The notes beneath the pieces were generated by a model. The model saw only the letters and a program-made list of their open reading frames with translations, was not told the origin of the DNA and did not search any database. 12,187 bases of DNA. It comes from a virus. Lineage: Duplodnaviria; Heunggongvirae; Uroviricota; Caudoviricetes. Positions 2,377-12,187 of this stretch are shown one piece after another. The translations under genes and the position numbers were made by a program. Location of the stretch: IMG/VR virus record IMGVR_UViG_2713896785_000025. The stretch is one strand, 5' to 3'. Each line of letters opens with the position of its first letter. Positions within the stretch are counted from its first letter, which is position 1.

Positions 2377-2572
2377 TCGGGTCCTTCCTGGAATTATGGT
2401 CCGTTACGGGGCGGCGACCTCGCGGTTTTTATCTGTTTATGAGAATTTTCCGGCAAAAGTCAGATCCGATCTTCTTCTCTGTAACAGACTGTTTAACAAC
2501 GAAAATATTAAAAAAAGAAAGGATCTGACACGAGGCATTTTAGCCAGAAAATGCCATTATCAGATCCTTTCT
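2377..2572 (+). other. Lambda-type cos site (cos1): cosQ-like flank, cosN GGGCGGCGACCT at 2409-2420, cosB-like R elements at 2460-2479, 2516-2528 (inverted), 2560-2572
   Basis: 12-nt overhang sequence identical to lambda cosN as recalled; flanks GTTACG / CGCGG..TTTATGA.AATTTTCCGG resemble the lambda left end; three repeats of TCAGATCC(G/T)(A/T)TCT in R3/R2(inverted)/R1 layout with hairpin 2534-2555 between R2 and R1. Confidence 0.8.
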
Positions 2573-2599: not shown

Positions 2600-3142
2600 T
2601 TACTCGCCTTTCTTCTGTAGCAACTTTTCCGGTACGTTTCCGGTTGTTTCTTTCAAGTAATCAGCCAGTATCTGTGGGAGGTTGTCGGCAACTCTGGCAC
2701 TGGCATTACAGGCTTTAACCACTTCCCTTTTAAGCCTGTCCAGCATGGCGGGGGGAATCTGTGGGAAGCTCCTTTGCATAGTAAGCGGGAGGATGTCCAT
2801 GATTGATGAAATCTGACTCGCCAGCTTTGAAAGCGCGTACAGGCAAAACTCAGTATCAATCACGTCACCGCGATCGCGATCGTTTTTAAGTTCCTGCGCC
2901 TCTGCCTGTGCTGTCAGTAATCTGATCCTGACTCGTAAAAGTTCATCATCGTCAATCTCGCCTTTGTCGTTTATAAGCTGGCTAATTGCATTGTTAACCC
3001 TATTTTCTATCACGCTGGCAACATCATAAAACGCCTCACGGCCTTTACGCTCAACGGGAGTTACTCCCCACTTGTCGAACGCTGTCGCACTTACACGGCA
3101 GCTTTTCGCCATGTTTTTTTTGTTCATCAGATGAGATTTCAT
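2600..3142 (-). CDS. Terminase small subunit, lambda Nu1-like (180 aa)
   Basis: Blocks shared with lambda Nu1 as recalled: NKK near N-terminus, LT(A/R)AQA(E/D)AQELKN.RD, (E/A)FC..(A/V)LS, ILPL(T/S)(M/V)QR.FP, LKR(E/D)(V/I)(V/I)KA. SD-like GGTG before ATG 3140-3142. Confidence 0.85.
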   Translation of the reverse strand: MKSHLMNKKNMAKSCRVSATAFDKWGVTPVERKGREAFYDVASVIENRVNNAISQLINDKGEIDDDELLRVRIRLLTAQAEAQELKNDRDRGDVIDTEFCLYALSKLASQISSIMDILPLTMQRSFPQIPPAMLDRLKREVVKACNASARVADNLPQILADYLKETTGNVPEKLLQKKGE

Positions 3143-3250
3143 TAATACACCAACTTAATTACTGCTTCAGGTTGGTGTATTGCTTGCATCTTTCCCTTTT
3201 CATTCATAAAGATAGATCAAACAACAAAACCACCACCACCCCCCTGAAAA

Positions 3251-3319
3251 GGCTCATAAATAGCGAAAATCCGCGAGGTCTCCGCCCCGTAACAGGTCCA
3301 TATGCCGGAAAGGACCCGC
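3251..3319 (-). other. Second lambda-type cos (cos2) in minus orientation: cosQ-like flank, cosN-like GGGCGGAGACCT (rc of 3276-3287, one mismatch), proximal cosB-like sequence, about 135 bp upstream of terS start
   Basis: Minus strand reads GCGGGTCCTTTCCGGCATATGGACCTGTTACG GGGCGGAGACCT CGCGGATTTTCGCTATTTATGA, closely matching the lambda right-end/left-end junction as recalled. Confidence 0.7.
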
Positions 3320-3341
3320 AAAAAAGCCGGATTTCTCCGGC
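3320..3341 (-). terminator. Intrinsic terminator (copy 1 of a thrice-repeated motif)
   Basis: Minus-strand RNA: hairpin GCCGGAGAAAUCCGGC followed by U6; 7 nt downstream of stop of gene 3348-3761. Confidence 0.6.
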
Positions 3342-3347
3342 CTTGTC

Positions 3348-3761
3348 TCAGATGGTTTTCAGTATGCGATCGATGTCGCCGTCATCGCCCGGGTTTCTGC
3401 CATCGTATGCCATGCCAGCTGATACGGCTTGTGGGCTGTGCATGTCCATAAAGTTTTCAAAGGCTGCGGTAAGCTCTGGTGCAACCTTCGGGCGTTCCTG
3501 CTCTATGGTCATGTTCAGGATGTTTTTAGCCGTATCAACATCAATACAAGGCACGTTTGCCATTGCACGTAACAGCGGCTGATAGTCGTCAGATTCATGA
3601 AGCGCCATAATCGCATCAGCGCGCGGCTTGTCCTTCTCTTCCAGGCTGTTAAGTTGATATACGGCCTCGTAGGTTGATAAACCTCTGTCAGCCATTGCCC
3701 GCGCTTCGGCTTTAAATTTACTCGCCAGCGGTAGCGTCATGATACTTTCATTCGTTGCCAT
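3348..3761 (-). CDS. Hypothetical protein (137 aa), between decoration gene and terS
   Basis: ORF with SD-like AGGGGGA upstream of ATG; 12-nt gap after the upstream gene stop; no recognisable motif. Confidence 0.65.
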   Translation of the reverse strand: MATNESIMTLPLASKFKAEARAMADRGLSTYEAVYQLNSLEEKDKPRADAIMALHESDDYQPLLRAMANVPCIDVDTAKNILNMTIEQERPKVAPELTAAFENFMDMHSPQAVSAGMAYDGRNPGDDGDIDRILKTI

Positions 3762-3773
3762 CGTTCCCCCTGC

Positions 3774-4109
3774 TTATCGCGCCAGCGGCTGAACGGATAC
3801 GCCAGAACCCGCAAAGGCGGCGCATTTTTTCGCGTCGGTGTCGGCGCTCTCAGGCCAGTTAACGGCGGCAATATTGAATATCCCCGTCTTGTAGCACTGT
3901 GCTGATTTCTGCGTCGACGTGTCCACGGGGTACGAGGTCAGATAAACAGCCTTGCCAGATTCCTGACCATCCCACGGCTTAAACTCGCCATTTTCCGCCA
4001 GCATCAGCGGGGTAAATTCCTGAATAACGCCAGCATCAGCAGCAAAATGTACCAGCGTCGTGGATACCTGCTGACTACCTGCAAATAACTCAATGTATGG
4101 AGTGTCCAT
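3774..4109 (-). CDS. Head decoration protein, lambda gpD-like (111 aa)
   Basis: Motifs shared with lambda D as recalled: TPLML, WDG, YK(T/S)G(I/T)F, WPE, KK..AFAG; same length class; SD GGGGGGA in 12-nt spacer after MCP stop. Confidence 0.85.
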   Translation of the reverse strand: MDTPYIELFAGSQQVSTTLVHFAADAGVIQEFTPLMLAENGEFKPWDGQESGKAVYLTSYPVDTSTQKSAQCYKTGIFNIAAVNWPESADTDAKKCAAFAGSGVSVQPLAR

Positions 4110-4121
4110 AGAATCCCCCCG

Positions 4122-5177
4122 TTAACCAATTTTGACGGTAACAAATTTGCGAATATCTGCCGGTACCGGCTGCGGTGCGCTGTGCGTCTGCACGTACTCA
4201 ATCGCCGGATCGCCGTCCTCAATCCAGTTTTTCGGGTAAAACATGTTTTGCGTTGCGCCCGTTCTGACCGCTTCCTGATCCATAATCGCACCATAGGCCA
4301 CCAGCCCTTTATTGTTGGTGTTACCCAGGACCAGCAAATCAGGCTCAAGGAAATATTTTTCGGTGCCGTCGCTGTCAGTGTATTTGCCGGAATAGACGAC
4401 AAGGGCAATATCGCCCAGATAGCCTTTAAAGCTCACCACTTCACCCAGGTTTTTACAGGCCAGTTCTGCGGCGGATTCTGAACCACGGGAAAGGTCGTAC
4501 AGTTCGCGGAATTTTTTAAAGCTGCGTAACGTGCGCCATACTTCAGCGCCCATAATCATGACGTTTGCGGGGCAATTGCCCTGATCAGCATAAAGCTCGA
4601 TGTCATAGATTGGATCGTGTGTTTCTTTATCCAGCTCAGACCATTTTTTACCGTCAGCCTGTTCTATGATATTGCTTTCCGGGATCTTCCAGTCGATTTC
4701 ATAGCGTTCTATGCCTTCGCCCTCAATGAGGTTTTTTCCGGTCGTTACCGCATTCACCGCCAGCCATTCCACGCGTGCCTTAATGGCGTTTATCTGGCGG
4801 CGCATGTTGCCAGTAATCAGGCGCATACGGCGATAGGTAGGATCGTTAAGCTGTGCCGGATCTTCTCCAGCCATGCGCATGATGGTTTTTGTTGGATCGA
4901 TTTCGTGTTTGGGTTTCATGTAGCCTGGTTTAATCGTGCTGGTTTCGTACCCTTTATCGCGCTGGACCTGACTACCCACCATAGGCGAACAGAACGCTGA
5001 CATCGTAACCTCTTCAATGTCCAGGGTGTCCAGCATGATGTTCTGGGTGTTGAAGGTCGCCACGTTCGGGAAAAACAGCGTGGTAAACAGCGGACTGAAT
5101 TTAAATTCTGCAATATCCCCGCGATTCAGGTACGCGAAAAGCTGGTTAGTGTTAAGTGCCGTTGCTTTGCCTGCCAT
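4122..5177 (-). CDS. Major capsid protein, lambda gpE-like (351 aa)
   Basis: Motifs shared with lambda E as recalled: (K/E)FKF.PLF..LFF, PGY(V/M)KPKHE, EDP..L.DP.YRR.R, YSG.Y, YPKNW...GDPA, SAP. Strong SD GGAGGTGA; start overlaps upstream stop (TAATG). Confidence 0.9.
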   Translation of the reverse strand: MAGKATALNTNQLFAYLNRGDIAEFKFSPLFTTLFFPNVATFNTQNIMLDTLDIEEVTMSAFCSPMVGSQVQRDKGYETSTIKPGYMKPKHEIDPTKTIMRMAGEDPAQLNDPTYRRMRLITGNMRRQINAIKARVEWLAVNAVTTGKNLIEGEGIERYEIDWKIPESNIIEQADGKKWSELDKETHDPIYDIELYADQGNCPANVMIMGAEVWRTLRSFKKFRELYDLSRGSESAAELACKNLGEVVSFKGYLGDIALVVYSGKYTDSDGTEKYFLEPDLLVLGNTNNKGLVAYGAIMDQEAVRTGATQNMFYPKNWIEDGDPAIEYVQTHSAPQPVPADIRKFVTVKIG

Positions 5178-5383
5178 TATTCACCTCCATGCGTCTGATT
5201 CATGCCCAGCGCCGCGCGTAAATAGGCGCGGACCTGCCAGCCTGTTGACGGCTCAACCATCGCCAGCGGATCAAGTCCTGCCGCAATGCCTGCTTTTACG
5301 TTCTGCTGGTGGCGTTCCTTGAGCGCCTTCACGATGTCGGGGCTTATGTACACCGAAACACCGCCTTTTTTCTCTTCAGCCAT
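5177..5383 (-). CDS. Hypothetical protein (68 aa), first gene of capsid operon
   Basis: ORF with SD AGGA 7-9 nt upstream of ATG; stop overlaps MCP start codon. Confidence 0.6.
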   Translation of the reverse strand: MAEEKKGGVSVYISPDIVKALKERHQQNVKAGIAAGLDPLAMVEPSTGWQVRAYLRAALGMNQTHGGE

Positions 5384-5439
5384 AGTAAGAAATTCCTCTT
5401 CGACTTAAAAAATCATAACTGGATGTTTATCCAGTCCTG

Positions 5440-5467
5440 ATTATAATCAGAATTGCATTTTATGCAA
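5440..5467 (-). promoter_or_regulatory. Candidate sigma70 promoter for capsid operon (-10 TATAAT, -35 TTGCAT, 16-nt spacer) overlapping palindrome TTGCATTTTATGCAA
   Basis: Minus-strand hexamers read from rc of 5440-5445 and 5462-5467; inverted repeats at 5453-5467 and 5418-5435 (ACTGGAT-GTTT-ATCCAGT). Confidence 0.4.
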
Positions 5468-5548
5468 TGATATTGAGTTATGTTGCAAATTATGAAATGA
5501 TTATCCCGATCACGAACGCCAGTGCATCCAAAAACCTCATATGCAAAA

Positions 5549-5586
5549 GCCCGATAAGAACCCTCTGACCTTATCGGGCTTTTTTT
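5549..5586 (+). terminator. Hairpin plus T7 (10-bp stem GCCCGATAAG/CTTATCGGGC); strong on + strand, weaker on minus
   Basis: Perfect 10-bp inverted repeat with 11-nt loop followed by TTTTTTT on + strand; A-run on other side gives U4 on minus strand. Confidence 0.5.
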
Positions 5587-5592
5587 GGGCGC

Positions 5593-5614
5593 AAAAAAGC
5601 CGGATTGCTCCGGC
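5593..5614 (-). terminator. Intrinsic terminator (copy 2 of repeated motif)
   Basis: Minus-strand RNA: hairpin GCCGGAGCAAUCCGGC followed by U6; about 20 nt downstream of gene 5635-5859. Confidence 0.6.
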
Positions 5615-5634
5615 TATGTGTGCTGTGTGCTGGC

Positions 5635-5859
5635 TCAGTCTCTGATCTCTTTCAGAAATTCTATCAATGCATCTATCTGTTCAGGATTTACCGCCAGCAT
5701 TTCACCGGATAGAGCACATCTCACAAAACCATGCTGATCCTTTTCAATCAGTGCGCCCGTCTCCAGGAATGCGCGGTAATCATTGATGCTCATCGTCTCC
5801 ATGTTGTCAGCATGGTATTTATCACGCTGTTTTAATATCTCATCAAATTTCATCGGCAT
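5635..5859 (-). CDS. Hypothetical protein (74 aa), terminator-insulated cassette
   Basis: ORF with SD AGAGGA 9 nt upstream of ATG; no recognisable motif. Confidence 0.6.
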   Translation of the reverse strand: MPMKFDEILKQRDKYHADNMETMSINDYRAFLETGALIEKDQHGFVRCALSGEMLAVNPEQIDALIEFLKEIRD

Positions 5860-5955
5860 TGTTTTTTTCCTCTGTTGTGTCTGTTTGTTTCAGATAGTAA
5901 CTATGCCTGACCGTGACGAAAACCCGGTAATGCGCCATACCGTTTCAACTGGTGC

Positions 5956-5978
5956 AAAAAAAGCCGGATTTCTCCGGC
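5956..5978 (-). terminator. Intrinsic terminator (copy 3 of repeated motif)
   Basis: Minus-strand RNA: hairpin GCCGGAGAAAUCCGGC followed by U7; 8 nt downstream of stop of gene 5986-6258. Confidence 0.6.
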
Positions 5979-5985
5979 TGTTTGA

Positions 5986-6258
5986 TTAGCTGTCCTGGTA
6001 ATTGCGCCATATTTCATCACCAGCACCATCTATACCCATTTCGGCATAAGTGCGATCGACTGCCTTTTTCAGGTCTCCGAAATTATCCGGCGGCTCCGGT
6101 GCCCTCTGTGCCTTCCTTGAACATTCCAGCCGTCGCATCGTGATGTGATGCCGTTCCTTGTCTGTCTCCACCAGCTGCATGACTTCACCCCATCGCGCCG
6201 CCGCCCTCCGGTAAAAGCCTTTCGCCTCCAGTTCCTCCGCTATGCGGTCATGTACCAT
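5986..6258 (-). CDS. PerC-family transcriptional regulator-like protein (about 90 aa; start refined from the 130-aa track ORF)
   Basis: N-terminal motif D.IAEELEAKGFYRRAAARW typical of the PerC/Pch family as recalled; internal ATG at 6256-6258 has SD GAGGGGG 5 nt upstream, and the SSB stop codon lies within that SD. Confidence 0.6.
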   Translation of the reverse strand: MVHDRIAEELEAKGFYRRAAARWGEVMQLVETDKERHHITMRRLECSRKAQRAPEPPDNFGDLKKAVDRTYAEMGIDGAGDEIWRNYQDS

Positions 6259-6268
6259 CGTCACCCCC

Positions 6269-6679
6269 TCAGAACGAAATATCATCACCGTAAGGGTCAT
6301 CGCCTCCCGCTGGTGGCTGATTACCCTGTGTGCCTGTGGTTTTGCGTCTGTTCCCGCCTGGACGTGCCGCGCGGGCACTGATTACGCTGTCTGCGATAAC
6401 CTGCCAGCCCTGCCGCGTTTCTCCGTTCTGTCCGGTCCACTGGCTTACCTGCATCGTGCCGGATACGCTGGCAACATCGCCTTTTTGATGTTTAGCCAGG
6501 AAGTCGGCCTGTTTGCCAAATGCGATGACCGATAACCATAACGTCGCCTGTCCGTCCTGTGCCTGGCTGCATGGCAAAGATACCGCCATACGCGCCAGCG
6601 TCATCGGTGTGCCCTTGCTGGTCTGTTTTACCTGCGGGTCGTCCACCAGCCGCCCGTAAGCGGCTATCTGTGCCGTCAT
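6269..6679 (-). CDS. Single-stranded DNA-binding protein homolog (136 aa)
   Basis: OB-fold blocks align with E. coli SSB as recalled (GRL..DP, FGK.A, W..Q.G..R); Gly/Gln-rich linker; acidic C-terminal tail GDDISF (host tail is DDDIPF). SD GGAGAGGTGG; ATGA overlap with upstream gene. Confidence 0.8.
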   Translation of the reverse strand: MTAQIAAYGRLVDDPQVKQTSKGTPMTLARMAVSLPCSQAQDGQATLWLSVIAFGKQADFLAKHQKGDVASVSGTMQVSQWTGQNGETRQGWQVIADSVISARAARPGGNRRKTTGTQGNQPPAGGDDPYGDDISF

Positions 6680-6927
6680 AATTCCACCTCTCCGGTTTTA
6701 ACGTTGATGGTTGTTACCTGTTCCGCTTCGGCAATCTCCCGTTCTGTCAGCGTGGCAAAGTTTGCCGCCGCCGTGGTCATGAATGCGCTTATCAGGTCGG
6801 GATGTTCCTTCGCGTATCCTTCCCGCGTGTGGCGGTCTATCGTTCTGATTGCCACCTTTAAGGTGTGCTCAGTCATGTCTAACGCTTTATATTTTGGCTC
6901 TGTTCTGTCTCTGCGTTTTTGGGTCAT
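6676..6927 (-). CDS. Hypothetical protein (83 aa from ATG; track ORF uses GTG at 6957)
   Basis: ATG at 6925-6927 (rc) with GAGAGG 9 nt upstream; GTG start would place iterons inside the coding sequence. Confidence 0.5.
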   Translation of the reverse strand: MTQKRRDRTEPKYKALDMTEHTLKVAIRTIDRHTREGYAKEHPDLISAFMTTAAANFATLTEREIAEAEQVTTINVKTGEVEL

Positions 6928-6939
6928 TTCTCGCAACCT

Positions 6940-7130
6940 CTCACTTTTTCGCCTCACTTTTTCAAGCGTCTCACTTCGTCGCAGTTGGGATTTTCGGTTT
7001 TTCTATGTGTGTGTTTCATAAGTATTTTTTTACCCCTCACTTTTGAGGATGTATACAGGTCGAAAAGTGAGGGAGAGCGGGCTAATTTTGGCCCTCTTTC
7101 TATCCCCCTCGCTTTTGCTCCTCACTTTTA
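6940..7130. repeat. Iteron array / candidate origin of replication (CTCACTTTT repeats, one inverted) with AT-rich tract
   Basis: CTCAC(T)4 at 6940-6949, 6953-6962, 7036-7045, 7121-7130; variants at 6970-6978 and 7108-7117; inverted copy AAAAGTGAG at 7063-7071; AT-rich stretch 7001-7034; immediately downstream of replicase gene. Confidence 0.6.
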
Positions 7131-8528
7131 TAGCGGCGCTACATCATCCCCATCGATACGAATAACCCCATCTTTTTCCAGCTTGTACAGCCAGCGCCGG
7201 AAGTTTTTCATTTCATACCCCAGCTTTTTCATGTCATCACGTAACAGCGGGATCGTGCACTTGTCGCCGTTCTGTGTGCGTGAACGGATGCACCCCCATA
7301 GCGCGGTATGGTTTTCCGTCTTGTTCCCTGCCTCCTCGATGCGCTCCAGTTCAACAGGAGGGCGCGGATCATCCACCACCACCAGCGACGTGATTAATTC
7401 ACCGTCAGCGTCGGTAAAAAGCTCCACCACGCGTAAGTCATATGCGGCTTCTTTGAGTTCCTCCGCGTCCTTCATTTTGGTGCATGAGATAACCAGCGCT
7501 TCGCTTCCTGCGTCCTCCCTGCGTATCCGGTATTCAGCATCCAGCGAAGCACGAAATGCACTGGAACCGCGCGCGCCTTTCGTCTCATCCTTGCCGGAAT
7601 GGTGAACCACCAGCACCGTGGCCCCTGTGCGTCGTTTCAGTTCGTCACAACCACGGATAAACGCCCCCATATCACGGGAATCATTTTCATCATTCCCACC
7701 AAAGCAACGCGCCAGCGTATCCAGAATAATCATGCGTACAGGTTTACCCGTTTCCCGCTCCACCTGACGGGCAGCGATAACCATTTCATCAACATCAAGC
7801 GGGGCAGCCGGAAAGATGGGGCGGTTTACCAGATACAGATTTTTCACCTGCTCATCGTGCACAACCTCCCAGGCTTTTACACGACGCGGAACACCTATAC
7901 CGCCTTCACCAACCACATAGAGAACCGCACCATGTGCAACCCTGCGGCCTCCCCACTGGCGACCAGTGGCAACATGGCACGCCCACGATCCGGCAAGGAA
8001 TGATTTATAGGACCCGCTAGCCCCGTATATGCTGCATAGCGATACCGCCGGAATAATCCCCTTAACCACGTAATCCAGTTGCGTGTCGTATCCGGTAGAT
8101 CCAACGCTCATCGGTAGCGTGGTTTTTCGCTGGTGGTTTTTTTCTTCCGCCGGCTCTTTCCCGCGCACCCGTTCCAGGTATTCGCGCCAGTTCTCCCGCA
8201 TATGGCTGTGCATCCCTTCGGGGTAATAATTCGCATCAGTTACACCCGCCGCCGCCAGCTTGTGCGCAATGGCATTAATATTTGATGGCCTGATGTGGCC
8301 TGCCTTGTACAGCCGGACACAATAGCGCCCCTCGTCGATGATTCTCAGGTCTGCCAGTTCATCCAGTTGATCATCAGCCAGCACAACGGGAGGCACATTA
8401 TCGCCAGCCAGTCGCCCGTCCTGTTCCTGCCACTGTTTCGCATGTGCCCAGGCATCACTACCCGCAAAAATAATGACTTCGGTCATCTTGTCGTAAGGCT
8501 GTTTTTTTAAGTTCGGTGCGCTTTTCAT
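7128..8528 (-). CDS. Replication protein: RecA-like AAA_25 ATPase/helicase-type replicase with N-terminal possible Toprim/primase-like domain (466 aa)
   Basis: Walker A GASGSYKSFLA...HVATG, Walker B-like MIILDTLARCF, HHSGKDETKG motif; SD AGGGG; start overlaps upstream stop (ATGA). Confidence 0.85.
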   Translation of the reverse strand: MKSAPNLKKQPYDKMTEVIIFAGSDAWAHAKQWQEQDGRLAGDNVPPVVLADDQLDELADLRIIDEGRYCVRLYKAGHIRPSNINAIAHKLAAAGVTDANYYPEGMHSHMRENWREYLERVRGKEPAEEKNHQRKTTLPMSVGSTGYDTQLDYVVKGIIPAVSLCSIYGASGSYKSFLAGSWACHVATGRQWGGRRVAHGAVLYVVGEGGIGVPRRVKAWEVVHDEQVKNLYLVNRPIFPAAPLDVDEMVIAARQVERETGKPVRMIILDTLARCFGGNDENDSRDMGAFIRGCDELKRRTGATVLVVHHSGKDETKGARGSSAFRASLDAEYRIRREDAGSEALVISCTKMKDAEELKEAAYDLRVVELFTDADGELITSLVVVDDPRPPVELERIEEAGNKTENHTALWGCIRSRTQNGDKCTIPLLRDDMKKLGYEMKNFRRWLYKLEKDGVIRIDGDDVAPL

Positions 8529-8871
8529 TTCTTGCCCCTGAATCCGTTAATCATGGTTTTCAGCTTCTGGATGTTTGCCCGTGCCCTGGCGTTGCTGGTG
8601 GGCACGTTATGCGGCGCGGTCTGTACCAGAGAAAAATCACGCCGGAACTGATAAACAGGCATCACGCAATCATATTCGTAACCTTCACGNNNNNNNNNNN
8701 NNNNNNNNNNNNNNNNNNNNNNNNNNNNNNNNNNNNNNNNNNTGATTTTTGTTTGTCGCGTTCATTGTCGCCAAGTGTTTCAAGCCATATGCGCAATATT
8801 TCCAGCATGTTTTCACTGTGAGAAAGTGCAAGAAATGCGCGGTCTATTGTTTGGTGGTAAATATCACGCAT
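8525..8871 (-). CDS. Hypothetical protein interrupted by assembly gap (N-terminal 43 codons 8743-8871; C-terminal 54 codons 8528-8689 plus stop 8525-8527)
   Basis: Both fragments are open right up to the gap edges; ATG 8869-8871 with SD GAGGA; C-terminal frame ends with TGA overlapping replicase ATG. The stated gap length (53) is not a multiple of 3, so continuity is unproven. Confidence 0.45.
8690..8742. other. Assembly gap (53 N)
   Basis: Run of n characters in the sequence. Confidence 1.
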
Positions 8872-9328
8872 GGCTTACATCCTCAGGAAATTTTCTTCTA
8901 TAACGCGCCTCTGCCACATATTCCGCATAATCGGCGGCGATATTCAGTACATCAAGCCCCGTTGATTTATATTCTCTCGTGGAAAGTAAGAAAAAAGCCG
9001 CTCTAATAAGTTCTGGCATTGACGAAAGCGCATCAGCCGCATCATCAGGAACGCCGGAAAATTCCTGTTTCAGGGAATTAAAACGATCATCACGCATAAC
9101 CCCCCCATTTTCACAATCAGCAATCAGGATGGCTTTGGCCTCATTCAGCGCCATATCCGCACTAAGTTGCATAACCGCCAGCGAATGAGGAACGAAAGCC
9201 CCGGCATATTCTGTTTCACTGGTGGCGTGCTTATGCGCCATGTCTGCGATAACAGAAATATCAATCAGCGCGTGCATTAGCGTTATGATGGCTTCGGCGG
9301 CTGCGTCCGGACGGATGTTATTGCACAT
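8864..9328 (-). CDS. Hypothetical protein (154 aa), first clearly supported gene of leftward early operon
   Basis: Near-consensus SD AGGAGGTG 5-6 nt upstream of ATG 9326-9328; stop overlaps next start by 8 nt. Confidence 0.65.
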   Translation of the reverse strand: MCNNIRPDAAAEAIITLMHALIDISVIADMAHKHATSETEYAGAFVPHSLAVMQLSADMALNEAKAILIADCENGGVMRDDRFNSLKQEFSGVPDDAADALSSMPELIRAAFFLLSTREYKSTGLDVLNIAADYAEYVAEARYRRKFPEDVSHA

Positions 9329-9524
9329 GGCACACCTCCTGACGAATACGGGCAGCGAATACCATCACGCAGCCAGCCGGAGATTGCTGGCGTGCTTCCT
9401 GTTCGCTGGTGGCCTCAATGGTAATCACGCGCGGTTGTGCCGTGCTCAGGGCGATAAAACGCCAGATGTATTTATTCAGGTTGTGCGAGTCCCGCCCTTG
9501 CGGGTGTGTGGTATGATTTCTCAT
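9318..9524 (-). CDS. Possible small protein (68 aa); C-terminal part of the 342-aa track ORF
   Basis: ATG at 9522-9524 (rc) with GAGGT 4 nt upstream; otherwise unsupported, and it contains the SD of the next gene. Confidence 0.25.
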   Translation of the reverse strand: MRNHTTHPQGRDSHNLNKYIWRFIALSTAQPRVITIEATSEQEARQQSPAGCVMVFAARIRQEVCHVQ

Positions 9525-9620
9525 AGCTACCTCGATACTTTCGCTATCGTTGGTGGTTAGAAGCCCGGTTAGTGTTAGCGCACTGCCGGGTTTCGTCGTT
9601 TCTGCACCTTGCGCCAACAA

Positions 9621-9674
9621 GGTGTTGAACACCAATTTAAACCCAGGTGTTAAACACGTCAAGTGTTGAACACT
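9621..9674. promoter_or_regulatory. Three palindromic operator-like sites GTGTT-N-AACAC with candidate rightward promoter
   Basis: GGTGTTGAACACC 9621-9633, GGTGTTAAACACG 9646-9658, AGTGTTGAACACT 9662-9674 (centres 25 and 16 bp apart). -35 TTGAAC 9666-9671 inside site 3, 17-nt spacer, -10 CATACT 9689-9694, upstream of ORF 9724. Confidence 0.6.
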
Positions 9675-9723
9675 TATTTTTTTTCCTGCATACTGCATTT
9701 GTTTTTTATGAGGGGTACACCAC

Positions 9724-9903
9724 ATGGCGACAAAAGCAGTAAACGCAAAATCACAAACCGTTGCGGCAAGGGTTCCGCATGAAGTTATGAACAATGTTGA
9801 GGCGGTAAAAATGCCTGGCGAAAGTACGGGGCAATTTGTTACTGCAGCATTAAAACGAGAAGTTGAATATCGCCAGCGGCGCAAGGCCAAAGAACCAGAG
9901 TAA
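9724..9903 (+). CDS. Small DNA-binding protein, ribbon-helix-helix-like (59 aa)
   Basis: Not in ORF track (below size cut-off). ATG 9724 with SD GAGGGG 8 nt upstream; pattern beta-strand TVAARVP, helix, loop GES, helix resembles Arc/CopG-type RHH; basic C-terminus. Confidence 0.55.
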   Translation: MATKAVNAKSQTVAARVPHEVMNNVEAVKMPGESTGQFVTAALKREVEYRQRRKAKEPE

Positions 9904-9960
9904 TCACCATCAGCGCCGTGGTGTAAGGTATTACGGCGCATTGCTATGCAGGACAACACA

Positions 9961-10134
9961 ATGACCGATAAAGAATTGACCAAAACATTATCACCGGCAC
10001 GGAAAAGACGGCGCAGAAAGATAGAGCATGAATCAGAAAGATTCGCGCCATGTGCTTTTGCCCTTGAGCAATTCCTTAAAGAGTACAGGGAAAAGCGCTC
10101 ATTGCAGGTATGGCAACGAACTGAACCAGACTGA
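9961..10134 (+). CDS. Small basic hypothetical protein (57 aa; track ORF starts at 9946)
   Basis: ATG 9961 has SD AGGA with 7-nt spacer; Arg/Lys-rich segment RKRRRRK; followed by terminator. Confidence 0.45.
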   Translation: MTDKELTKTLSPARKRRRRKIEHESERFAPCAFALEQFLKEYREKRSLQVWQRTEPD

Positions 10135-10228
10135 TAGCATTGCCCACCAGCCTGATAGCGACTATCATTGCCGTTCTTATGTTTGGGATCACACACACAA
10201 ACGGCGCAGCGGGTTATCTGTTCAGAAA

Positions 10229-10257
10229 GGCGGCTCCATTTCGGGGCCGCTTTTTTT
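10229..10257 (+). terminator. Intrinsic terminator for rightward transcript
   Basis: Stem GCGGCTCC/GGGGCCGC (one G-U pair), loop ATTTC, then T7 on + strand. Confidence 0.65.
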
Positions 10258-10403
10258 ATGTCTGAAAAACCCCAATTTTGTTGTTTTTCAGTTTCACCAG
10301 GGCGAACGAATCCCCGCCCACGTTCTGGCGTATATTCAATCTTCATGGTTATAGCTCTGTGTTCAGATGATTGATGTGTGGCGGCTGCGTGCCGCCAGCG
10401 TGA

Positions 10404-10592: not shown

Positions 10593-10865
10593 TATTGCCC
10601 CCCTTTCGTTTCTTAAAGAGTCATCAGGTGTCTTATTGTGTCGTATTGTTCCCGCTAGAGTGATGAATGGCAAATATTGAGGATGTATGATTTACAGAAA
10701 ATGAAACAGTAAGAATAAAATCTTTTAAATTCATGTTAATACAAAGGCATAAAATATTGTTTCATGCCTTTTTTCTCACGCGTTAAAGCGTTATTCGCTA
10801 ATGTATAAAAAAACAGTCACACAAATAAAATCAGTCACTTATAAACCTGTGTACTTTTTCGCCTC

Positions 10866-10910
10866 TTGTTCGTGGTTGTTCCACGTTGTTTCACATTGTT
10901 CGCCGTTGTA
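10866..10910. repeat. Five phased direct repeats TTGTT at exact 10-bp intervals
   Basis: TTGTT at 10866, 10876, 10886, 10896 and TTGTA at 10906; adjacent 16-bp perfect palindrome CAGTATGCGCATACTG at 10925-10940. Confidence 0.55.
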
Positions 10911-10957
10911 TCTGTGTGCTTATCCAGTATGCGCATACTGAAAAAACACGAAAAAAA

Positions 10958-12187
10958 TTATTTTCTTCTGGCTGCTGGTAGTGCGGTTACGTTTTCATGT
11001 GTTCCCGCCAGTATCCCTAACCGCTCCATCCACATATCCAGCGCATTGCGTTTAGCATCCAGATAACGGGAATGATTATAAACTCGCTGCATTCCTGGCA
11101 TCTGGTGGCCTGTAAGCTGCTCCACGACGTGAGGATCCACGCCTAAATCGCTCAGCATCGTTGTAAAGGTGCGCCGGATGTCATGTAGTGACCAGTGAGG
11201 GTGATTTAGCCTCCTGTGCGCTAATCTGCCGTACTGCGACACGCTTGTTTCCTGTTTCACTTCCCCCAGCAATAAGCCCGTGTGCCTGTTCTGCTCCACC
11301 AGCTGCGTGACGAACGGCAGTATTGCTTCCGGTATGGGCCGGAATATTGCCACCTTCGTTTTGCTGTGTTCTTTCGGCACGGTCCAGAGCATTTCGGTAA
11401 AATCCCACTCGCTGATCTCCGATAACCTCAGTTCTACCGTCCGGCATCCGAACACAATCAGGAGGCGGATTAACGCGATGTAGTAGGGGGAGAATATTTT
11501 TTTGTCCAGTGCCTGCAATAATTCGCCCAGTTCTTTGGTGCTTAAGACACGCTCGCTTATATCCGGTTTTTTCCCAACGTCCGCCACACTCATATCATCA
11601 AGAACGTTGCTGATTGCATAGCGCCGCCTCCGGCAGAACTTAAGCGCCTGTTTGCACGTCTGTAGCAAGAATCCGGCAGTAACAGGCGTTCGCTTTGCCA
11701 CCTGGTCAAAACAGGCCAGCCAGTGCCGTAGCTCGCATTTATCCAGCGGCATAGCACCAATGTGCTGTATTACGTGATTATTAAGGCGCTTTTTCAGGGC
11801 GGCATAATCCACGCGGTTTTCCTTTGCGTACGACTCAAGCCAGTAGGTGAGCGCATCGCCAACCGTTACCGGCTTTAACGCTTCCTGTACGGTGTAATTA
11901 AGCTCATGACGTGGATTTTTCCCCTCTGCCAGCCATGCGCGACACTGGGCGGCTTTTTCCCTGGCTGATTTCAGGCTCAGATCAGGATAATTTCCCAGCT
12001 TAATGCGTTCCGGTGGTGCCCCCCTTCCCGTTCCGGCCCTGTAAGTGAAATACCAGGTTAAAAGGCCACTGGTTGAATGCCTGACGCTCAGGTTTCCACC
12101 GTCATTAAGAAAGGCTGTTTTTTGGGCGGGTGTGCCGTTGATTTTCCTCAGCTGTGTATCGCTCAGTTTGTTAAGTGCTCTGCTCAT
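10958..12187 (-). CDS. Tyrosine recombinase / integrase, P4-like family (409 aa; start codon at the window edge, so the 5' end could be truncated)
   Basis: N-terminal arm-binding-type region; catalytic-domain motifs GCRTVELRL, HDIRRTFTT, LTGHQ...VYNHSRY (R, H-x-x-R, Y). Confidence 0.92.
   Translation of the reverse strand: MSRALNKLSDTQLRKINGTPAQKTAFLNDGGNLSVRHSTSGLLTWYFTYRAGTGRGAPPERIKLGNYPDLSLKSAREKAAQCRAWLAEGKNPRHELNYTVQEALKPVTVGDALTYWLESYAKENRVDYAALKKRLNNHVIQHIGAMPLDKCELRHWLACFDQVAKRTPVTAGFLLQTCKQALKFCRRRRYAISNVLDDMSVADVGKKPDISERVLSTKELGELLQALDKKIFSPYYIALIRLLIVFGCRTVELRLSEISEWDFTEMLWTVPKEHSKTKVAIFRPIPEAILPFVTQLVEQNRHTGLLLGEVKQETSVSQYGRLAHRRLNHPHWSLHDIRRTFTTMLSDLGVDPHVVEQLTGHQMPGMQRVYNHSRYLDAKRNALDMWMERLGILAGTHENVTALPAARRK

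Follow-up and report, generated by a model that had tools for sequence, protein, structure and literature searches.

Why should three different genes of one small mobile element end in the same hairpin? The question is raised by a stretch of DNA of 12,187 nucleotides, the IMG/VR virus record IMGVR_UViG_2713896785_000025 (the whole of which we refer to as the window), in which a nearly identical G+C-rich palindrome stands shortly after the stop codon of three genes. Bases 1–1461 of the window are the PhoQ gene, on the plus strand, and the remainder is a mobile island with every gene on the minus strand, which by its gene content is a phage satellite of the E. coli (Gram-negative) type of phage-inducible chromosomal island (PICI), as described in PMC6092414. 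We consider it likely that the three copies are Rho-independent terminators for leftward transcription, that they share a common descent, and that they serve as recombination joints for whole modules of the satellite. The element itself is an ordinary intrinsic terminator and its interest is evolutionary rather than mechanistic.

The repeat, GCAAAAAA(A)GCCGGATT(T/G)CTCCGGC, is located at positions 3318–3341, 5591–5614 and 5955–5978. The pattern GCAAAAAAGCCGGATTKCTCCGGC matches the first two copies with 0 mismatches and the third with two when compared ungapped; this third copy has seven A instead of six and is identical once a 1-nt indel is allowed. In 200 dinucleotide-preserving shuffles of the window the chance expectation was nil (mean 0.00 matches, maximum 0). 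Beyond about 30 nt the copies diverge, indicating that we are dealing with a short repeated unit and not with part of a longer duplication. The minus-strand RNA of each copy reads (A)GCCGGA-G(A/C)AA-UCCGGC(U) and then U6–U7, i.e., a G+C-rich stem of 6–7 bp with a GNRA loop and a hairpin energy between -12.0 and -13.6 kcal/mol. The copy that we call T1 (hairpin GCCGGAGAAAUCCGGC plus U6, 3318–3342, minus strand) is found 6 nt after the stop codon of a 137-aa scaffold-like gene (ORF, or open reading frame, end at 3348), and its tail abuts a cosQ-like sequence. T2 (hairpin AGCCGGAGCAAUCCGGCU plus U6, 5591–5615, minus strand) follows a 74-aa gene (end at 5635) at a distance of 20 nt and in relatives joins either an E-type or an HK97-type packaging module. 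T3 (hairpin AGCCGGAGAAAUCCGGCU plus U7, 5955–5979, minus strand) comes 7 nt after the gene of a PerC-family protein (end at 5986) and closes the alpA-replication-ssb-perC block. A preliminary description of this DNA had already placed three copies a few nucleotides past minus-strand stops, with coordinates that were off by no more than 2 nt, and its term “intrinsic terminator” fits both the anatomy and the conservation described below.

The sequence features of an intrinsic terminator were found, namely a G+C-rich stem-loop, an adjoining 3' U-tract and a site past the gene end on the transcribed strand. A simple terminator scan gave 5591–5614 and 5955–5978 among its top minus-strand matches, and on the plus strand there is a weakly T-rich tail at the third copy only. 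Given the stem, the GNRA loop, the U-tract, the site just past the stop codon and the conservation pattern, we infer that T1, T2 and T3 terminate leftward transcription in a Rho-independent manner. They share with bacterial and phage terminators of this class the G+C-rich hairpin, the stable tetraloop and the U-tract just past the stop on the coding strand, and nothing in them is different in kind; what is unusual is the recurrence of one exact sequence at the ends of several genes of the element and throughout the family. No Rfam family was found at or near the three sites, and a literature search retrieved no paper containing the hairpin sequence in either orientation. RefSeq annotates at this place a 42-aa hypothetical protein (5901–6029, minus strand) that runs through T3 and overlaps perC, and that is entered for E. 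coli Xuzhou21 as a “trigger factor” pseudogene with a frameshift; this coding sequence is probably a spurious call.

The loci of relatives were fetched by protein homology, which makes the sample independent of the motif, and the sequence past each stop codon was then read. After the 137-aa gene the hairpin was identical in all 77 loci with enough sequence, and was followed by T6–T9 and then by GGGTCC. After PerC it was present in 73 of 78 loci (six of them with a single stem mutation), the other five having no terminator. The length of the U-tract in the relatives goes from T5 to T9, and inside the hairpin the second loop base alone varies freely (GAAA, GCAA, GUAA, GGAA), loop positions 1, 3 and 4 being fixed. 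Since the second base is the unconstrained position of a GNRA tetraloop, the pattern fits selection on an RNA hairpin. Some bases outside the hairpin are shared as well. The sequence CACA(C/T)A immediately precedes the stem in most contexts of the PerC, 74-aa and 83-aa genes, and 14 nt that include the stop codon are common to one PerC allele and the 83-aa gene. These shared bases, together with the lack of the sequence in island-free E. coli, favor common descent of the unit over convergence.

The evidence for a role as joint comes from what stands on either side of the hairpin. We surveyed 161 hairpin occurrences (in the window and in 120 contigs of the viral collection), classifying the upstream gene and the downstream sequence of each, and the junctions turned out to be combinatorial. 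PerC and its hairpin were followed by the 74-aa cassette (15 occurrences), an E-type capsid leader (9), an HK97-type leader (8), a module with a protease-capsid fusion (3) or a second type of cos (2). Behind the 74-aa gene and its hairpin came the E-type leader in 8 occurrences and the HK97-type leader in 7. There were also arrangements with the SSB gene or the 83-aa gene directly preceding the hairpin and cos or other modules behind it. The 78 protein-anchored PerC loci gave the same picture, with the cassette in 35, the E-type module in 19, the HK97-type in 16 and cos in 3, besides the five without hairpin. The HK97-type module is the packaging set of the capsid-forming PICIs (cf-PICIs), with capsid, protease, portal, connectors, HNH, TerS and TerL in the RefSeq annotation of E. 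coli O157:H7 Xuzhou21, and the 15 loci of its class all showed 96–99% identity along 3 kb; the remaining downstream modules were identified by reading their ORFs. The sequence behind the terminator in some relatives had also been considered as an island end or an integrase arm site, and this was ruled out by the Xuzhou21 annotation and the 3-kb alignment, which identify it as the HK97-type cf-PICI leader. As far as can be read from the sequences, the hairpin is the junction of a conserved replication end with at least five different packaging modules.

In one pair of relatives the change of a single unit can be followed to the nucleotide. Locus L114 has the order perC, hairpin, 74-aa cassette, hairpin, HK97 module, and locus L071 has perC, hairpin, HK97 module. 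Over 400 nt the upstream flanks agree at 99.5% and the downstream flanks at 100% (99.9% when 2.9 kb downstream are taken). The whole difference between the two is a unit of exactly 354 bp framed by perfect direct repeats of 23 nt (caGCCGGAGCAATCCGGCTTTTT), one copy of which stays at the joint. In the window the corresponding optional, moron-like cassette consists of a 95-nt leader and the 74-aa gene (5616–5954, minus strand), is bracketed by T3 and T2, and is present in some relatives and absent in others. We also examined where homology to the window begins and ends in 159 distinct protein-anchored loci, again chosen by protein homology and not by the motif. Within the three terminators ±10 nt there were 153 of the 680 internal endpoints compared to 11.6 expected (the span being 1.7% of the region), i.e., a 13-fold excess. 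The bins 5950–5974, 5600–5624 and 5575–5599 were among the largest breakpoint peaks, T3 being the largest of all. The peak at 8675–8699 is an artefact of a run of N (masked or unresolved bases, 8690–8742) within a minus-strand gene. Cassette-wise assembly or exchange, which the preliminary description had suggested, is strongly supported at the hairpin by the interchangeable junctions, the exact indel between L114 and L071 and the pile-up of breakpoints. This role of module joint, well supported by the comparison, appears not to have been described before.

The three terminators would split the satellite into four units. The first would be the alpA-replication-ssb-perC block, ending at T3, and the second the optional single-gene 74-aa cassette, ending at T2. 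The third would be the capsid module, located behind T2 and a further hairpin (hp2, see below) with its own promoter region, and ending at T1, and the fourth would comprise cos plus terS. The near-identity of the copies would derive from common descent rather than chance, and a unit of about 23–35 nt (the stop-proximal CACAYA, the hairpin and the U-tract) would be the sole sequence common to the joints of otherwise unrelated modules. Recombination between copies would delete, insert or swap whole modules and one intact terminator would remain at the joint, the route being either short-homology recombination or replication slippage in one island, or homologous exchange between co-resident satellites. 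We infer that it is the homology of the terminators, rather than selection alone, that places the joints at the hairpins. We would go further only tentatively, and with low confidence, to propose that the terminator unit is a dedicated plug-and-play joint driving the swaps of packaging modules between classical PICIs and cf-PICIs. Such a joint would act through the 23–35 nt of identity, perhaps aided by hairpin-stimulated slippage or by a short-homology recombinase of the helper during co-replication and, if true, satellites would possess a cassette system that is quasi-site-specific and has a transcription terminator as its basis.

Several observations weigh against recombination joints of common descent. 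There was no compensatory stem change among the relatives, and selection on structure and selection on sequence are not formally separable. The exact 21-mer was found in at least 120 stretches from unrelated phyla, when about 0.5 would be expected (our own arithmetic for a random 21-mer in 596 Gb), and is also present in unrelated viral contigs. A terminator of this kind can therefore arise convergently and identity alone proves no copying. Related sequences enter into the junction and breakpoint counts, which do not represent independent events. There are further real breakpoint peaks at 6675–6699, 6925–6949 and 3225–3249. Finally, T1 is rarely a breakpoint where the 137-aa gene is present; in those islands it is inherited along with cos.

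The preliminary description had placed the terminators “inside the operon,” and had deduced that the packaging genes downstream need either their own promoters or antitermination. The operon was an assumption, and a division of the island by the terminators into separate transcription units is more likely. As to the two ways out, we lean to an own promoter for the capsid module, and antitermination found no support. Directly after T2 there is a 15-bp hairpin of -21.7 kcal/mol with U-runs on both strands (hp2, 5545–5583), whose stem is unchanged in 57 distinct relatives save for four single-sequence mismatches, the loop being variable. It probably insulates the capsid module, which it precedes, in both directions, and on the plus strand it could be the end of a short RNA antisense to the leader of that module. 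An AT-rich region follows (5405–5470, minus strand) in which a putative promoter/operator can be read, with TTGCAT (5467–5462), a 16-nt spacer and TATAAT (5445–5440), this -10 hexamer being almost invariant in 57 distinct relatives. The region contains nested palindromes, one of which (CTGATTATAATCAG) overlaps the candidate promoter. It also holds a 14-bp dyad followed by a T-run (hp3, 5411–5442), which the terminator scan marks as terminator-like and which has partial covariation, with some symmetric or compensatory changes among relatives. In RNA started at the candidate promoter, hp3 would be reduced to its weak inner half (-7.5 kcal/mol), while the complete hairpin (-13.4 kcal/mol) would fold in RNA reading through from upstream, and the palindromes and dyad could be an operator, an attenuator or both. 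The first protein encoded in the E-type module has homologs of 68–75 aa in the same place in two other capsid modules, and looks ribbon-helix-helix (RHH)-like, a resemblance read by eye and without support from family searches. The near-invariant TATAAT, the operator-like palindromes and this RHH-like first product suggest an autonomous promoter, and the capsid module appears to be an insulated unit under a regulated promoter of its own. The stretch that separates T2 from the capsid module had no match in 50,697 phage records, and thus gives no sign of a helper late promoter having been borrowed. For annotation, the island would best be read as several insulated transcription units.

The reading that survives best besides recombination joints is that the terminators are conditional. 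The island would be one long helper-induced operon in which a processive antiterminator of the satellite or of the helper lets RNA polymerase through T3, T2, hp2 and T1 in the manner of lambda N and Q, so that the packaging genes are kept silent until induction. Several features agree with this. The genes of the island are all co-oriented, up to four or five terminator-like hairpins stand in series before or around the capsid module, and PICI induction requires alpA (PMC6092414). In addition, the consensus scan was empty of sigma-70 promoters for the 74-aa gene (5860–5954; only weak candidates by eye) and for terS. We nevertheless regard it as rather unlikely, as no antiterminator candidate was found in the island. 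AlpA of P. aeruginosa is a processive antiterminator (PMC7969949) whose fold of eight helices resembles that of phage 21 Q (PMC9371919). The AlpA of the island was considered for the same function and rejected since the likeness is in the name only, the island protein being a 62-aa helix-turn-helix of family PF05930. Among solved structures its sole match was a 73-aa AlpA-family protein, with no match to the P. aeruginosa AlpA chains at E ≤ 1. The search for a loading site, which covered lambda boxB, gave one near-match, GCCCTGAAAAAGCGC (11786–11800, minus strand), which is one mismatch away from the nutR boxB and has a broken stem; it is found inside the int coding sequence, near chance level, and is probably due to chance. 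The signs of an autonomous promoter ahead of the capsid module, in a region without phage matches, likewise argue against a single conditional operon.

Convergence under selection has to be weighed next. An optimal short terminator would have arisen, or been kept, independently at each gene end with no role in recombination, and the joints would coincide with the hairpin merely because terminators mark the ends of functional modules. The recurrence of the exact 21-mer in many unrelated phyla and in unrelated phages indicates that such a sequence is easily reached. Besides, ordinary homologous recombination in conserved flanking genes also shuffles these islands, as seen in the other breakpoint peaks and in the upstream identity between L114 and L071, which is 93% beyond 400 nt. 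The distribution of the motif among hosts argues against convergence. A 30-mer search found the motif in 1634 of the 5426 complete E. coli genomes, at a median of 2 places and a maximum of 10, so that it is missing from about 70% of them. Island-free E. coli genomes are altogether without the sequence, and it is thus not a preferred E. coli terminator. The two genomic matches with inspected surroundings were both in PICI-type islands. No coliphage among the 50,697 phage records carried the motif, for which only partial matches were found, in Enterococcus, Bacillus and Erwinia/Serratia phages. The search of satellites and phages proposed in the preliminary description has thus located the motif in related satellites and in no coliphage and, taken with the survey of E. 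coli genomes, means that within enterobacteria it belongs to satellites. Furthermore, at least three independent origins in one family of elements are improbable, the shared bases reach outside the functional hairpin, and the joints of non-homologous modules hold exactly one intact copy, with the L114/L071 indel ending inside the repeats. On balance we find convergence alone an unlikely explanation.

A further reading takes GCCGGA-N4-TCCGGC as a DNA palindrome bound by some protein (regulator, packaging factor or site-specific recombinase) instead of an RNA terminator, and we find it very improbable. The dyad is perfect, the sequence is invariant and free of compensatory changes, and one copy abuts cosQ in every island with the 137-aa gene, all of which speak for such a site. 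Against it, the U-tract is always on one strand only and varies in length from 5 to 9, the position is always just 3' of a stop codon, and the loop varies according to the GNRA rule. Moreover, T2 and T3 are not adjacent to cos, the motif also ends genes in unrelated bacteria, and the one recombinase of the island, a tyrosine integrase of the P4 type, has an arm-binding domain.

Repetitive extragenic palindromic (REP) elements are short G+C-rich palindromes, dispersed in many copies over the E. coli core genome, that contain GCCGGA, and this likeness spoke for a host-wide repeat of the REP or bacterial interspersed mosaic element (BIME) type unrelated to the island, a possibility also raised in the preliminary description, but the distribution over the 5426 genomes (1634 positive, with few copies) and the location of the inspected matches in PICI-type islands refute it. 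The attC cassettes of integrons were ruled out as well. The attC sites are about 57–141 nt long, have conserved core sites, with which the repeat was compared, and go with an IntI-type integrase; here the integrase is of P4 type and the repeat is a 16-nt hairpin plus U-tract without attC-like extent.

Recombination joints built on a terminator would have parallels among phages. The moron of lambdoid phages is a supernumerary gene that sits between two others and brings along a promoter and a terminator (PMC3594210). The 74-aa cassette is similar in being a single gene with a 3' terminator (T2) that is present or absent between the same neighbors in close relatives. It differs in that the scan gave no clear promoter of its own, in that it is bracketed by two copies of one terminator, which give an obvious route for precise loss or gain of the cassette, and in that the element hosting it is a satellite and not a phage. 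A second parallel is given by the short conserved boundary or linker sequences found at the mosaic joints of lambdoid phages and discussed under the modular theory of phage evolution. There, too, a short sequence shared between non-homologous modules allows homologous exchange. In the satellites, however, the joint would be a functional-type terminator of about 23–35 nt, and it links the front end of a classical E. coli PICI to packaging modules of both PICIs and cf-PICIs.

E. coli PICIs and cf-PICIs, among them EcCICFT073 and EcCIEDL933, have been described in PMC6092414, PMC6739421 and bioRxiv 10.1101/2022.09.08.507074, where int, alpA and rep are identical between both types; neither terminators nor the content of the joint are mentioned in these three papers. 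The present island resembles the E. coli PICIs in its int, alpA, replication module with iterons, perC and lambda-like cos, and its front end recurs in relatives that have the HK97-type cf-PICI module. Classical PICIs and cf-PICIs have been treated as separate satellite families, and the seam between them can now be located at one short terminator, after perC or after the optional 74-aa gene, which is the attachment point of at least five packaging modules. This would provide a concrete and testable route by which satellites change their packaging strategy and helper range.

With respect to its host, the window matches E. coli 2013C-3264 at 100% identity, the island sitting there between phoQ and roxA. 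At least 80% of a 7.3-kb island query was present in 370 of the 5426 complete E. coli genomes, with the same phoQ-roxA position. Genes were assigned by Pfam and PHROGs matches plus RefSeq annotation. From right to left, and all on the minus strand, the front block starts with the integrase (10958–12187; Arm-DNA-bind_3 and Phage_integrase domains) and the AlpA-family protein (PF05930, E = 5e-17). It continues with an AAA_25/RepA-type helicase gene (7128–8528) and the SSB gene (6269–6679), and the PerC-family gene (5986–6261; PF06069, E = 4e-43) is the last of this conserved block. The 74-aa gene (5635–5859) comes next. The capsid module (3348–5383), between T2/hp2 and T1, consists of a 68-aa gene, a major capsid gene like lambda E (4122–5177), a decoration gene like lambda D (3774–4109) and the 137-aa gene (3348–3761), which resembles the scaffold end of head proteases. 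The Nu1-like small terminase gene (terS, 2600–3142) lies beyond T1, and the gene of a 93-aa protein is listed last. In gene content and location the island agrees with Gram-negative PICIs: it has int and alpA, a replication gene together with an ori, and cos or terS, it occupies a specific chromosomal site, and it is free of lysis and tail genes. However, the packaging set (2600–5383) is unusual. With E-like capsid, D-like decoration, scaffold-like protein and Nu1-like TerS and without portal, protease or TerL, this set, present in the 370 genomes, fits neither of the described types, the classical cos-only PICI and the capsid-forming PICI.

Right downstream of T1 there is a lambda-like cosQ-cosN region (3243–3317, minus strand) with an inverted repeat, a cosN-like part at 3276–3287 and a cosQ-like part at 3305–3317, and it is 82–86% identical to lambda-like phages. 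We take these parts to be cosQ and cosN from the sequence of lambda; PMC6092414 was used together with it for the labels. Two such copies are found inverted around terS, at 2378–2453 (plus strand) and 3243–3318 (minus strand), 76 nt long and 78% complementary. The left copy precedes three R-site-like repeats (2459–2476, 2512–2529 and 2560–2578), although terS points toward that copy. EcCICFT073 is known to have two cos sites that function (PMC6092414), but we have not seen an inverted cos pair around terS described before.

Some other features of the island are worth recording. Between the helicase gene and the next gene, at 6945–7129, there are three copies of a repeat containing CCTCACTTTT, 83–85 nt apart, which look like the iterons of a replication origin. 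A 342-aa ORF obtained mechanically at 9318–10346 (minus strand) is not a gene, RefSeq having there an Icd-like gene, a YlcI/YnfO gene (plus strand, 9724–9903) and a truncated pseudogene. Antisense to the minus-strand genes near the Icd-like gene, at 9525–9597 (plus strand), Rfam gave a sub-threshold match to the SymR antitoxin RNA (33.3 bits with a gathering score of 61, E = 0.0037). Finally, five phased 10-bp TTGTT repeats are found between int and alpA (10864–10915, plus strand), with an inverted copy near the phoQ-proximal end of the island (1571–1612), and the same array stands directly after the terminator that heads the HK97-type cf-PICI packaging module of another relative (L400, about 6600–6650). 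This array may be a binding array for AlpA or for the integrase.

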